Assembly (NCBI GenBank): GCA_965208835.1
Contig: OZ242358.1
Location: 2,336,001-2,400,000 of the forward strand
Direction: 5' to 3'
DNA from: Candidatus Latescibacterota bacterium
GTDB taxonomy: Bacteria > Latescibacterota > UBA2968 > GCA-2709665
DNA: 64,000 nt
Under the pieces are notes generated by a model. The model was not told the DNA's origin. It searched no databases and was given only the letters and a program-made list of their open reading frames with translations. Made by a program: the position numbers and the translations under genes. Every line of letters begins with the position of its first letter. Position 1 is the stretch's first letter. Positions 28,933-51,367 of the stretch are shown here, in pieces.

Positions 28933-30369
28933 TCATGTCAGCCTTGGAAAAAGGGGCTGGCTTTTTTTTATCTGCGATTTTGAGAAACTGGCCTCAATTC
29001 TGCGCGCAGTACCGGGAAGAAAGGGTCTCAGTACCCGCGAGACATCCAGAACCGCCCCGATCCAGGCCGAGAGGTGTTCCGACAGGCTCTCGGCCTTCTG
29101 ATCATTCAGAAGTTCCCATGGACGCGCCGCGTCGATATCACGGTTAATTTCGTCCACGCGCCGCCAGATGGCCCGGAGGGCGCCGGCGAAGTCGAACCTG
29201 TCCAGCGCGCCGCTCACGTCAGACGGGACATGGGTTTCACGCGTATCAGGGGGACCACAAACGGACCTCTCGCAGAGGGATTCCAGCCGGCGCACGAGGT
29301 TACCAAGCCCATTCGCCAGGTCCGAGTTGTAGAGTTCCCGCAACCGGGCTACCGATACGTCTCCGTCCTCTCCGGAGCGGACGGCGCGGAGCAGGTAGTA
29401 CCGGAGGGCGTCGGCGCCGAATCGGCGAATCAGAGGGAACGGATCGACGGCGTTGCCCTGCGATTTGCCGATCTTGCGCCCCTCCACGGTCAGGTGTCCG
29501 TGGACGTAGATGGTTCCGGGCAGCGGCAGGCCGGCCGAGAGCAGCATGGCCGGCCAGTAGATCGCGTGGAATTTGAGGATGTCTTTGCCGATGACATGGA
29601 CACAGTTGGCGCATTTCCGCCAGTAGCGTTCGAAATTGTCGACGTTTGAACCATAACCCGGCCCGGTGAGGTAATTTGTCAGGGCGTCGAACCACACGTA
29701 TATAACCTGCGATGCATCTCCCGGTACGGGTACGCCCCAGCCTCCCGATCGCTCCCGATTGCGGGAGATGCTGAAATCCTGCAGGCCCTGGCGGATGAAG
29801 CCAAGCGCCTCGTTTCGCCGGGTTTCCGGGAGAATGCGAAGCTTCCCGGATGCTATCAGGGTCTCCAGCGGCTTCTGATAGGCGGACAGGCGGAAGAAAT
29901 AGTTCGTTTCCGCGACGTTCTCGGGTACGACGCCATGTACAGGGCACCGTCCGTTTGCCAGATCCCTTTTCAAGTAGAAGTCTTCGCAGCCCACGCAATA
30001 CAGACCCCGGTATTTTCTGAGGACGATGTCCTCCTTCCGGCAGGCCAGCCAGAACCGGGAGGCGCCGCGGAAGTGGGCGTCGGACGAGGAGCGAATGAAA
30101 GCGTCATGAGAGATATCGAGGGCCCTGGCGAGGTCCCGGAAGACAGCGGCGTTCCGGTCGCAGAGCTGACCGGTGGACAACCCTTCGCTCACCGCGGCCT
30201 GCACGTTTTTGAACGCGTTCTCGTCGGTCCCCGTCAGAAAGAAGGTGTCGTTGTCCTGAAGACGGCGCCATCGGGCGATAACGTCGGCCTGCACCAGTTC
30301 CAGCGCGAAACCCACGTGTGGGCGGGCGTTGACGTAGGGAATCGAGGTCGATACGTATGAGGTTTTCAT
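28933..30369 (-). CDS. metG: Methionine--tRNA ligase, short form lacking the C-terminal tRNA-binding domain
   Basis: IPYVNARPHVGF (HIGH-like), LTGTDEN, YCVGCE/CPVH knuckle, YVWFDAL, IGKDILKFHAIYWPA and KIGKS (KMSKS-like); start ATG 30369 with RBS aaagga. Confidence 0.93.
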   Translation of the reverse strand: MKTSYVSTSIPYVNARPHVGFALELVQADVIARWRRLQDNDTFFLTGTDENAFKNVQAAVSEGLSTGQLCDRNAAVFRDLARALDISHDAFIRSSSDAHFRGASRFWLACRKEDIVLRKYRGLYCVGCEDFYLKRDLANGRCPVHGVVPENVAETNYFFRLSAYQKPLETLIASGKLRILPETRRNEALGFIRQGLQDFSISRNRERSGGWGVPVPGDASQVIYVWFDALTNYLTGPGYGSNVDNFERYWRKCANCVHVIGKDILKFHAIYWPAMLLSAGLPLPGTIYVHGHLTVEGRKIGKSQGNAVDPFPLIRRFGADALRYYLLRAVRSGEDGDVSVARLRELYNSDLANGLGNLVRRLESLCERSVCGPPDTRETHVPSDVSGALDRFDFAGALRAIWRRVDEINRDIDAARPWELLNDQKAESLSEHLSAWIGAVLDVSRVLRPFLPGTARRIEASFSKSQIKKSQPLFPRLT

Positions 30370-30384
30370 GGCGTTTCCTTTCTG

Positions 30385-30423
30385 AAAAAAAAAACCCACC
30401 GCCGATCCGTCGGCGGTGGGTTT
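30385..30423 (-). terminator. Intrinsic terminator (attenuator) immediately upstream of metG
   Basis: Perfect 14-bp stem aaacccaccgccga / tcggcggtgggttt with a 4-nt loop, ending in a run of 10 T on the minus strand 15 nt before the metG ATG. Confidence 0.88.
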
Positions 30424-30451
30424 GTCAAATACGGTAACCGTGTCGTTCAGT

Positions 30452-30610
30452 TCAAGTCAAGGGATGCTCCGCCGCAGGATTCTCGAAAGGGAAGGAGGAC
30501 ATCATGCACATCGGGATCGCGGCGACATGAGTCGACGCCGTGCTATGCCTTACGACTGAGGACCGCCCTGATACGCGCGACCTGAAAGCTGACAATTGAA
30601 CGGATTTCAT
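30452..30610 (-). CDS. Putative metG leader peptide (52 aa, Met-Cys-Met-Met cluster)
   Basis: MKSVQLSAFRSRVSGRSSVVRHSTASTHVAAIPMCMMSSFPFENPAAEHPLT*; RBS taagggg; lies between the promoter and the terminator. Confidence 0.65.
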   Translation of the reverse strand: MKSVQLSAFRSRVSGRSSVVRHSTASTHVAAIPMCMMSSFPFENPAAEHPLT

Positions 30611-30638
30611 TTACAGCACCCCTTATTGTGTGGGCTTA

Positions 30639-30667
30639 AAGATAGATGGTCGGCCATGAATTGTCAA
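30639..30667 (-). promoter_or_regulatory. sigma70 promoter driving the leader and metG
   Basis: Minus strand TTGACA-17 nt-TATCTT, 28 nt upstream of the leader ATG. Confidence 0.75.
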
Positions 30668-30818
30668 GCGCGGAATTCTTAACTTGCCCTTGTCCTTTTC
30701 GCGTGATGGGCTTACATTGTCGAAGACGGGAGAACCGGCGACCGGCCCGGCGGTCGCCAGGGTACAAGCCTTACCGGGCGCAGTCTTATTTTGGCGAACT
30801 ATCGATAGGGATTCGGCT

Positions 30819-51291: not shown

Positions 51292-51367
51292 TGGTGACCC
51301 CGAGGGGAGTCGAACCCCCGTTTCCAGGGTGAGAACCTGGTGTCCTAGGCCACTGAACGACGGGGTC
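51292..51367 (-). tRNA. tRNA-Glu (anticodon CTC)
   Basis: 76 nt: GACCCCG acceptor stem, CCAGG-TTCTCAC-CCTGG anticodon arm, GGGGG-TTCGACT-CCCCT T arm and encoded CCA. Confidence 0.97.

Follow-up and report, generated by a model that had tools for sequence, protein, structure and literature searches.

A candidate methionine-codon attenuator ahead of a methionine-poor second methionyl-tRNA synthetase gene in Latescibacterota

Leader-peptide attenuators are textbook regulators for Trp, His, Phe, Leu, Thr and Ile/Val and for a few synthetase genes, and Rfam holds leader families for Trp, His, Leu, Thr and Phe. The classical E. coli systems, including pheM-pheST, trpL, hisL, leuL and thrL, present one order of parts: a promoter, a short ORF containing codons for the cognate amino acid, and a terminator with a competing upstream strand. 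Other modes of control are the T-boxes of Firmicutes, which govern auxiliary synthetases such as thrZ and tyrZ, and translational attenuation of the ermC and cat type. Classical attenuators of synthetase genes, some of them second paralogues, also appear outside the Proteobacteria. One study describes candidates of the leader-peptide type for trpS2 and leuS of Streptomyces (PMC1262725), and another describes His-codon leaders before hisS paralogues in Bacillus, with a mention of ermC (PMC2965389); both refer to control of synthetases by T-boxes.

Methionine is an awkward case for this kind of regulation, in that ATG has to serve both for sensing and for initiation, and the regulated enzyme charges both Met tRNAs. 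For the methionine operons of Actinobacteria, the first of these studies reports that no conserved upstream RNA structures were seen (PMC1262725), and the available sections of a review of aminoacyl-tRNA synthetases make no mention of attenuation or MetRS2 (PMC7373986). The literature that we searched contained no Met-codon leader or metG attenuator in print, and no account of a synthetase that is poor in the amino acid it charges.

Here, we analyze a locus on the minus strand of a 64,000-nucleotide stretch of contig OZ242358.1 from a Candidatus Latescibacterota bacterium (the window, whose numbering is used throughout). It has the same order of parts as the E. coli systems, the competing strand being a predicted one, and, like the pheST attenuator, it lies directly before a synthetase gene, metG2. 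Unlike the classical leaders, it uses Met codons, which double as start codons, it places these regulatory codons 33 codons from the start, and its host belongs to an uncultured phylum. At 52 codons, it is also longer than classical leader peptides. Compared with the trpS2, leuS and hisS leaders, it concerns another amino acid and another phylum, and the product of the controlled gene is additionally depleted of its own amino acid. The logic resembles that of the thrZ and tyrZ T-boxes, in which a back-up synthetase is induced by poorly charged cognate tRNA; whereas a T-box reads the uncharged tRNA directly, the reader at metG2 would be a ribosome on cognate codons. From the sequence evidence set out below, we estimate a probability of about three in four that the locus is a ribosome-mediated transcription attenuator of the trp/pheST type, specific for methionine, that gates the Met-poor metG2.

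Layout of the leader and of the gene it precedes

The leader is preceded by a putative sigma-70-type promoter at 30667-30639, in which TTGACA (30667-30662) and TATCTT (30644-30639) are separated by a 17-nt spacer and match the consensus at 10 of 12 positions. This is the sole such site between 29800 and 31400, but shuffled sequences are expected to contain 0.6 of them, so the site alone is not significant. When the 14 genomes of the genus that carry metG2 are aligned, TTGACA is invariant and the -10 element nearly so. A Shine-Dalgarno-like AAGGGG (30624-30619) lies 8 nt 5' of the leader start codon, and the alignment keeps a GGGG, GGGAG or AGGAG block at its position. The ORF itself extends from the ATG at 30610 to 30452, with 52 codons followed by TGA, and encodes the peptide MKSVQLSAFRSRVSGRSSVVRHSTASTHVAAIPMCMMSSFPFENPAAEHPLT. 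Its only internal Met codons form the cluster ATG-TGC-ATG-ATG at codons 34-37 (30511-30500).

Four segments that could compete for pairing begin within this cluster. Region 1 (GAUGUCCUCC, 30503-30494), the proposed anti-antiterminator strand, consists of the last Met codon and the adjoining Ser-Ser codons. Region 2 (30477-30463) combines CUGCGGCGG at 30477-30469 with AGCAUC at 30468-30463; within it, GCGGCGGAG occupies 30475-30467 and starts 24 nt past the last Met codon. The end of region 2 falls 13 nt ahead of the leader stop codon, which is the middle TGA (30454-30452) of a cluster, TGAnnTGAnnTGA (30459-30447), with stops in all three frames. Regions 3 and 4 make up an intrinsic terminator (30423-30385), in which AAACCCACCGCCGA (30423-30410) and TCGGCGGTGGGTTT (30405-30392) form 14 pairs, 9 of them G-C, around the loop CGGA, with a run of 10 T at 30394-30385 and a free energy of -26.7 kcal/mol. 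Every element listed in a preliminary description of this DNA, namely the promoter, RBS, 52-aa ORF, Met cluster, GC-rich block and terminator, was recovered at its position.

Only 22 nt separate the terminator stem from the metG2 start codon at 30369, leaving space for nothing but the RBS (AAGGA, 30380-30376), and the gene upstream of the leader is divergent. With this arrangement, every metG2 transcript must cross the terminator. We also considered an internal promoter for metG2 and rejected it: the scan found none besides the site at 30667-30639, and the transcript from such a promoter would still cross the terminator.

The metG2 gene (30369-28933) encodes a 478-aa protein, MetRS2, that matches PF09334 (E 1.3e-94) and TIGR00398 (397.7 bits, cut-off 336.35). 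The closest solved structure is the MetRS 2csx (E 5.6e-104), to which residues 1-458 align, spanning the catalytic and anticodon-binding domains. Two signature motifs are altered, reading HVGF for HLGH and KIGKS for KMSKT. The preliminary description had named metG as the target; the gene is indeed one for a methionyl-tRNA synthetase, but it is a second paralogue, with predicted enzyme activity, and not the housekeeping metG. A canonical 634-aa MetRS1 is encoded elsewhere in the genome by a metG without a leader. MetRS2 has a single internal Met compared with 16 in MetRS1 of the same genome, and the binomial probability of one or fewer is 0.0017. All 20 orthologues have 0-3 internal Met, and the KMSKS motif reads KI[GS]KS. 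Among the best 119 protein clusters of the ~478-aa MetRS family, 100 combine H-x-G-F with K-I-x-K-S, and most contain 0-1 internal Met.

Conservation of the leader and its counterparts elsewhere

The promoter, the ORF start, an M-x-M-[M/P] cluster at codons 34-37, the GCGGCGG block and the 14-bp terminator are kept in each of the 14 metG2-bearing genomes of the genus. The preliminary description had suggested comparing homologs for the short ORF, its Met cluster and the spacing from cluster to terminator, and each of these is conserved in 14/14. The leader is exactly 52 codons long in 13 of them; the exception, G005, has 50 codons after a 1-nt deletion. The sequence M-[C/R/Y]-M-[M/P] occupies identical leader codons in every genome, and the chance of at least three Met in a four-residue window of a 51-residue peptide is about 7e-4 at the genome Met frequency of 0.018. 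No in-frame stop interrupts the leader frame in any of the 14, and frame +1 holds 2-5 stops. Pairwise differences over codons 2-32 number 289, 350 and 435 at codon positions 1, 2 and 3, respectively, and in two genomes the N-terminal half of the leader is unrelated but equally long. These patterns suggest that the first 32 codons evolve almost neutrally, yet keep their frame and length, and that the ORF behaves as a leader and not as a protein.

Between the Met cluster and the terminator, region 2 is the best-conserved block, and its nucleotides are kept in G005 despite the frameshift. Stops in three frames occur within 21 nt around the ORF end in 11 of the 14 genomes, and 13 have the same spacing between stop and terminator. 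Each genome has the leader unit as a single copy, upstream of metG2 and on the same strand, and we found no further copies of the leader in the genome of the window. A pattern scan of the genome contigs for the terminator motif returned 18 matches, 13 of which are metG2 loci of the genus. The other 5 were rejected as chance matches that have neither a T-tail nor a MetRS.

Met clusters also occur ahead of more distant metG2 orthologues, in leader ORFs of unlike sequence that each have a terminator behind them. The clusters read SSMGMPMSM in G016, NGMGMSM in G077, RSMGMH in G079 and PPMAMPRM in G161, and the chance of such a cluster ranges from 8e-5 to 3e-2 per lineage. As judged from these sequences, the Met cluster is the only feature that the differing leaders have in common. 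Two further genomes (G095 and G113) contain two tandem leader and terminator units each; the fourth of these terminators, in G113, was read by eye. Two observations speak against the Met-sensing reading: the metG2 genes of G015 and G017 have no terminator-type leader, and leaders of family f4 are rich in both His and Met. Among 73 usable metagenome loci of the MetRS family, 11 have a leader-type ORF (at least 2 Met in 7 residues) that is followed, no more than 200 nt from the start, by a terminator at least as strong as -15 kcal/mol. In this set, leaders accompany 9 of 43 Met-poor enzymes and 2 of 30 others, an association that is not significant (Fisher p = 0.11).

The same genome contains a second system of this type, in which the leader MAARDGHSGSWWWYDFNRTGRLTAC and a terminator lie ahead of its only trpS. 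A WWW, WWR or WRW leader is present in 15/15 genomes of the genus. A genome-wide scan for cognate-codon leaders yielded 89 candidates, and the downstream ORFs of 10 were run against Pfam; among these 10, only the WWW leader adjoins a matching gene, trpS. For seven candidates the downstream genes are unrelated to the clustered amino acid (xanthine-dehydrogenase-like, BamA-like, UxuA, a glutamine synthetase fragment, a histidine kinase, ATP synthase and A2M), and the downstream ORFs of two further candidates matched no Pfam family.

Predicted competing RNA pairings and a proposed switch

Region 2 has two possible partners, region 1 on one side and the terminator's 5' arm and loop on the other. 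When region 4 is left out of the folding, RNAalifold predicts the antiterminator formed by regions 2 and 3; it also predicts a helix between regions 1 and 2 that includes the last Met codon. The antiterminator has a core of 6 bp, CGGCGG with CCGCCG, all G-C, at -8.9 kcal/mol. In its extended form it reaches 9 pairs with one bulge and -12.2 kcal/mol, compared with -26.7 kcal/mol for the terminator. The preliminary description had paired gcggcggag with caccgccg, and this duplex is predicted as the core and its bulged extension but not at full length. The alternative helix joins GAUGUCCUCC to GGCGGAGCAUC (30473-30463) through 9 pairs and is weak, at -7.4 kcal/mol. In the alignment, paired cells make up 94.4% for the antiterminator and 93.7% for the helix of regions 1 and 2, compared with 13-78% when the partner is slid.

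Folding of the terminator and antiterminator states had also been proposed: both are predicted and kept in the genus, but covariation within it is not significant. For the antiterminator, 145 of 500 shuffles match or exceed the score of the alignment; for the helix of regions 1 and 2, in which one pair has changed on both sides, 99 of 500 do. The pairing blocks are nearly invariant within the genus. Across lineages, duplex energies show that upstream segments pair equally well with their own and with foreign terminator arms, and given this lack of discrimination we dropped any claim of covariation at the level of helices. The whole leader folds no better than shuffled sequences (z = -0.78), and pairing of the window leader with the metG2 start region is not significant (p = 0.15).

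We propose that these elements work as follows. Transcription would begin from the conserved promoter at about position 30632, and a ribosome would translate the 52-codon leader. With ample Met-tRNA(Met), ribosomes would pass M-C-M-M, cross region 2 and halt at the three-frame stop cluster. Region 2 would then be occupied or re-paired with region 1, allowing the 14-bp terminator to form and stopping transcription 22 nt short of the metG2 start codon. A shortage of charged elongator Met-tRNA, whether Met itself is lacking or MetRS1 fails or is inhibited, would instead stall the leading ribosome at codons 34-37, where it would mask region 1. Region 2, 24 nt downstream, would stay free, and its CUGCGGCGG could pair with CCGCCG-A-CGG in the terminator's 5' arm and loop. 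This would keep the terminator from forming, and RNA polymerase would continue into metG2, whose product, with its single internal Met, could still be made under a shortage of Met-tRNA.

Several points weigh against this scheme. At 52 codons, the leader ORF is long for its type. Judging from the usual footprint, we estimate that a ribosome whose A site holds the stop codon would shield only ~2 nt of the core of region 2, so the scheme accounts only in part for the state of plenty. Furthermore, the leader start codon needs Met-tRNA(fMet), which is charged by the same enzymes, and a severe shortage should therefore lower translation of the leader as well.

Alternative readings and wider meaning

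The preliminary description had read the locus as a Met-sensing leader-peptide attenuator, and the conservation in all 14 genomes, the recurring Met clusters and the negative Rfam searches described below support that reading, as do the Trp-codon leader before trpS and the scarcity of Met in MetRS2. A different possibility is that attenuation depends on translation but responds to something other than the charging of Met-tRNA. The leader could encode an arrest peptide, or it could report a general slowing of translation, for example by an antibiotic, in the manner of ermC/cat or bmrCD. The residues flanking the leader Met codons are conserved along with them, giving the peptide block I-S-M-C-M-M-S-S-F, and the ORF is long; both fit such a signal, as do the mixture of His and Met in the family f4 leaders and the type B uORFs of relatives, which conserve GG[ILV]xxM[RC]xS and not a pure Met run. 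Nevertheless, the conserved flanking codons coincide with the predicted pairing strands (UCCUCC with GGCGG), and the differing leaders share nothing but the Met cluster. The regulated gene, moreover, is that of the cognate synthetase, itself nearly free of Met, and the sister system matches Trp codons to trpS. We consider a signal of this other kind unlikely. The likeness to ermC and cat applies to the type B uORFs only, where a ribosome would open a hairpin that hides the downstream start region; the element in the window would act, if at all, through its terminator.

We regard it as slightly less probable still that the 52-codon ORF is a small-protein or sRNA gene in its own right, complete with promoter and terminator, that leaky read-through at a constant level supplies metG2 and that the Met cluster senses nothing. 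The single-copy unit always lies upstream of metG2 on the same strand (14/14, compared with 0/5 chance matches), and the window leaves no space for a separate metG2 promoter. The N-terminal 32 codons are almost without amino-acid constraint, as their differences by codon position indicate, and are replaced in two genomes; in addition, the 52-aa peptide matches no Pfam family. On the other side stand the strength of the promoter, RBS and terminator, the conserved length of the ORF and the arrangement in G014, G010 and G012, where 135-350 nt, including a further uORF, separate the unit from metG2 downstream of it.

A T-box or SAM riboswitch, which the preliminary description had named as the explanation that could displace its own, is matched by neither Rfam scan. 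At the gathering threshold, the whole window gave only a tRNA (tRNA-Glu, elsewhere), with no T-box (RF00230) and no SAM model. A permissive scan (E up to 10), confined to 30300-30800, gave 14 sub-threshold, sRNA-like matches to the terminator hairpin, none of them T-box or SAM, and the leader matched no Rfam leader family. A switch that works independently of translation, for example a riboswitch of a class yet to be described, an element resembling a T-box or an operator for MetRS2 itself of the kind known from E. coli thrS, is very improbable. It would fit the RNA-level conservation of region 2 and the terminator, and synthetase genes are often autoregulated or controlled by T-boxes, but no Rfam family reaches threshold, the leader fold is no better than that of shuffles, and the 5' 100 nt vary freely while the length of the open frame is fixed, which fits translation and not an aptamer.

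A methionine-specific attenuator at metG2 may also be part of a wider design, which we put forward tentatively and with slightly less than even confidence. The ~478-aa family would represent an emergency MetRS that has been purged of Met and is made when Met-tRNA is scarce. Its Met-codon leaders would take two forms that are interchangeable across lineages: a transcriptional form with a terminator, as in the window, and a translational form, as in relatives, in which the Met codons of a uORF are the strand that hides the metG2 start region. Some genomes would have both in tandem.

The metG2 locus offers a compact and testable example of such regulation in an uncultured phylum, together with a second, pairing Trp codons with trpS, in the same genome. 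It also ties regulation to protein composition, as the enzyme that would be induced lacks nearly all Met, including the M of KMSKS. The Met-depleted MetRS2 takes the principle of low cognate bias to an extreme in a synthetase. If it is active, MetRS2 would be a natural Met-free MetRS scaffold, and its gene may mark life styles limited by Met, or exposure to MetRS inhibitors.

The leader before metG2

All the elements named in the preliminary description, from promoter to terminator, are present on the minus strand. A promoter-like site identified by pattern scan (TTGACA at 30667-30662, 17 nt, TATCTT at 30644-30639) and a Shine-Dalgarno-like AAGGGG (30624-30619) precede a leader ORF of 52 codons (30610-30452), whose sole internal Met codons form the cluster ATG-TGC-ATG-ATG (30511-30500). 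The block GCGGCGGAG (30475-30467) follows, and the stop cluster TGAnnTGAnnTGA (30459-30447) closes the ORF with a stop in every frame. Behind it lie a terminator hairpin of 14 bp (30423-30392), nine of them G-C pairs, with the loop CGGA and ten trailing T, and the metG2 start codon (30369). Shuffled versions of the region match the promoter and terminator patterns at least as often, so our case is built on conservation and context rather than on motifs alone. From the terminator stem to the metG2 ATG there are just 22 nt. Every metG2 transcript therefore has to read through the terminator, and the hairpin is an attenuator by position alone.

The regulated gene (28933-30369, minus strand; 478 aa) had been taken for metG. 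By three measures its product is predicted to be a methionyl-tRNA synthetase: it matches PF09334, scores 397.7 bits with TIGR00398 (cut-off 336.35), and aligns over residues 1-458 to solved MetRS structures. It is, however, a second paralogue, MetRS2, beside a canonical 634-aa enzyme elsewhere on the chromosome (MetRS1; HLGH motif, 42% identical to MetRS2), whose gene sits closely behind another gene and lacks a leader. Divergent from the leader promoter is a gene for an MraY-like glycosyltransferase of family 4 (PF00953; 30684-31868, plus strand), which scores under the mraY equivalog cut-off and whose true start is probably well downstream of 30684. Because this neighbor is divergent and the next gene downstream is convergent, metG2 is monocistronic. 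The sole Rfam or ARAGORN match in the window is a tRNA-Glu (anticodon CTC; 51292-51367, minus strand).

Conservation of the reading frame and candidate RNA structures

Of the 14 other genomes in the genus, 13 carry metG2. The leader unit lies upstream on the same strand in all 13 and in the window's genome, so the ORF and Met cluster, first described from a single sequence, are kept in 14 of 14. In an alignment of these sequences, TTGACA, most of the -10 element, the ORF start, CGATGTGCATGATGTCCTCC, GCGGCGG and the terminator are invariant or nearly so, and the A/C-CAT-CC block behind GCGGCGG hardly varies. The leader is in single copy in the window's genome, and a terminator-motif scan of 185,579 species genomes returned only these metG2 loci and five other matches, which lack a T-tail and a MetRS and were rejected as chance. 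One metG2 (G012:C5:1245474-1246908, locus L017) matches in two pieces that overlap (residues 1-137 and 136-478), the result of a frameshift or an assembly error.

The leader ORF is exactly 52 codons long in 13 of the 14 genomes; the remaining one (G005) has 50, via a 1-nt deletion in a C-run that could be an assembly error. None contains an in-frame stop, compared with two to five in frame +1. Across codons 2-32, pairwise differences fall almost equally on codon positions 1, 2 and 3 (289/350/435), and in two genomes the N-terminal half is unrelated but equally long. In this N-terminal part, the pattern points to selection on frame and length, not on peptide sequence. Codons 34-37 read M-[C/R/Y]-M-[M/P] in every genome. 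The ORF ends with a stop in all three frames in 11 of 14, at a constant distance from the terminator in 13, and such a stop cluster would also catch ribosomes shifting frame at hungry codons.

We label the strand at the last Met codon region 1, the GCGGCGG-type block region 2 and the terminator arms regions 3 and 4. The terminator (3:4) has a ΔG of -26.7 kcal/mol. When the 3' arm is left out, RNAalifold predicts a helix between CUGCGGCGG (30477-30469) and CCGCCG-A-CGG (30416-30407) in the terminator 5' arm and loop, a candidate antiterminator (2:3) of -12.2 kcal/mol. On the full leader, it pairs GAUGUCCUCC (30503-30494), comprising the last Met codon and Ser-Ser, with GGCGGAGCAUC (30473-30463), a candidate anti-antiterminator (1:2) of -7.4 kcal/mol. 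About 94% of cells are paired in these two helices, versus 13-78% with the partner slid. The blocks hardly vary, and the observed covariation score was reached by 145 (2:3) and 99 (1:2) of 500 shuffles. A cross-lineage pairing test, run because terminators differ among lineages, failed, since an upstream segment rich in G+C finds about as good a partner in the terminator arm of every lineage. Given these two results, the RNA switch stands as predicted and conserved, not proven.

Region 2 starts 24 nt past the last Met codon, and 13 nt lie between its end and the stop codon. It is out of reach of a ribosome stalled at the last Met codon, and by the usual footprint we estimate that a terminating ribosome covers no more than about two bases at the end of region 2. 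The geometry fits the attenuator model in part; in the plenty state, region 2 might be silenced by following ribosomes on the long ORF, by the 1:2 helix, or by both.

Other leaders before synthetase genes

A whole-genome scan looked upstream of long ORFs for small reading frames that contain an amino-acid cluster and stop ahead of a hairpin plus T-run. It yielded 89 candidates, mostly spurious, with the metG2 leader and a Trp leader among them. The latter, MAARDGHSGSWWWYDFNRTGRLTAC, has a TTGACA promoter of its own and a terminator of -21 kcal/mol and lies before the genome's only trpS (G000:C1:368380-368610, minus strand; locus L070, 1240-1470), identified by TIGR00233 (tryptophanyl-tRNA synthetase; 310.7 against a cut-off of 176.75). 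Leaders with WWW, WWR or WRW precede trpS in 15 of 15 genus genomes; the terminator is ~180 nt from trpS in the window's genome, and most relatives have an RBS directly behind it. Among ten downstream ORFs from the scan examined with Pfam, only trpS matches its leader's clustered amino acid. We conclude that cognate-codon leaders serve synthetase genes in this lineage. TrpRS itself has one Trp in 358 residues (P = 0.037). The scanned genome also holds three small ORFs ending in ...ERTTPR(H/P)TTW or ...ESTTPHPTTW just before a hairpin plus T-run (~1398710, plus; 1591847, plus; 3251318, minus). They sit upstream of unrelated genes (xanthine-dehydrogenase-like, UxuA and a 181-aa ORF) and are probably a dispersed repeat carrying a terminator.

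At seven metG2 loci, a further uORF stands immediately in front of the gene (L009, L011, L017, L014, L015, L057 and L058). Three are in the genus, where it lies behind the terminator unit and both leader kinds stand in tandem; four are from G015, G017, G077 and G079. This uORF lies 100-130 nt upstream of metG2, overruns its start out of frame, and encodes a conserved GG[ILV]xxM[RC]xS. Its conserved block (A)CAUGCGCAUGUCC, which includes the Met codons, is the best partner of the metG2 Shine-Dalgarno/start region GGAC(A/U)UGCCAUG in all seven loci (-15.4 to -24.0 kcal/mol; shuffle p ≤ 0.007 in six); the window leader has no such pairing with the metG2 start region (p = 0.15). A ribosome held on these Met codons would free the metG2 start site, and the uORF resembles an attenuator that acts on translation through Met codons.

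Distant metG2 orthologues (50-74% identical) came from five further genomes of the phylum and from G016. Strong terminators stand behind leaders reading ...SSMGMPMSMRD... (G016), ...NGMGMSMRD... (G077), ...RSMGMHTH... (G079) and ...PPMAMPRMTS... (G161). Two tandem leader-plus-terminator units occur in each of G095 (L060) and G113 (L061), with peptides rich in Met and His (HMHHHHVM, MHHHHMMW and KHHYHFHCHAM... among them); three of the four terminators were detected by a terminator scan and the fourth, in G113, was found by eye with one mismatch. Some CAU codons there could pair with AUG codons, and the attenuator reading leaves the His enrichment unexplained. The chance per Met cluster in the distant leaders is 8e-5 to 3e-2; some look homologous to each other, perhaps to the window's, and are not fully independent.

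Metagenomes contributed 80 loci of the same MetRS family (44-57% identical), and 73 of them could be used. Eleven of these have an ORF with at least two Met in seven residues, such as MMMPRAW, MSMNMQM or MPMPMSM, ending ahead of a terminator with a ΔG of -15 kcal/mol or lower and at most 200 nt from the start. The motif MM(M)PRAW(S) recurs in metagenome loci L096, L099, L111 and L150 and in L060 and L061. In the last two, the PRAWS codons (CCCGGGCCUGGUC), immediately behind the Met codons, are by eye complementary to the terminator 5' arm. A ribosome stalled at the Met codons would cover the antiterminator strand in this subfamily, whose switching geometry may differ from the window's.

Proposed attenuation of a Met-poor synthetase

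With a probability of roughly three in four, we read the leader as a classical ribosome-mediated transcription attenuator of the leader-peptide type, specific for Met and gating metG2. We infer from sequence which way metG2 responds, that MetRS2 is active despite its changed signature motifs, and which pairings form in vivo. A leader that senses peptide arrest or a general slowdown instead of Met-tRNA is unlikely: the Met cluster is the only feature common to the differing leaders, and the links are cognate, Met codons with MetRS and Trp codons with trpS. Slightly less probable still is an independent small gene, as the N-terminus is neutral, linkage to metG2 is strict, and a promoter of metG2's own would not fit. 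A translation-independent RNA switch is very improbable, since Rfam, consulted for the T-box or SAM riboswitch that might have explained the region, matched only the tRNA at its gathering threshold, the fold is unremarkable (z = -0.78), and leader variation preserves the frame.

A leader-peptide attenuator is known before pheST. Passages of two further papers present such leaders as known or predicted before Streptomyces trpS2 and leuS (PMC1262725) and before Bacillus hisS paralogues (PMC2965389). Our full-text literature search found no methionine leader-peptide attenuator and nothing on metG. The putative attenuator described here stands out by its Met specificity, by a target enzyme that is auxiliary and nearly Met-free, by a long leader with a three-frame stop cluster, and by a candidate translational twin in relatives.

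Just one of the 478 residues of MetRS2 is an internal Met (binomial chance of at most one, 0.0017). Its orthologues have zero to three (20/20), compared with 16 in MetRS1 of the same genome, 13 within the first 478 residues. Cys is not depleted (6-10 per protein), so Met is spared, not sulfur. KMSKS is replaced by KIGKS or KISKS, and HIGH by H-[VIL]-G-F. Among the best 119 related clusters from a search of 5.8 billion proteins (P0004-P0122), 100 have both H-x-G-F and K-I-[SG]-K-S, most have zero or one internal Met, and named sources include Latescibacteria, Handelsmanbacteria, Chloroflexi, Hydrogenedentes and WWE3. MetRSs of ~478 aa with these motifs form a large family with named sources in several phyla. 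Behind a switch induced by starvation, one would expect an enzyme whose synthesis does not depend on its own amino acid.
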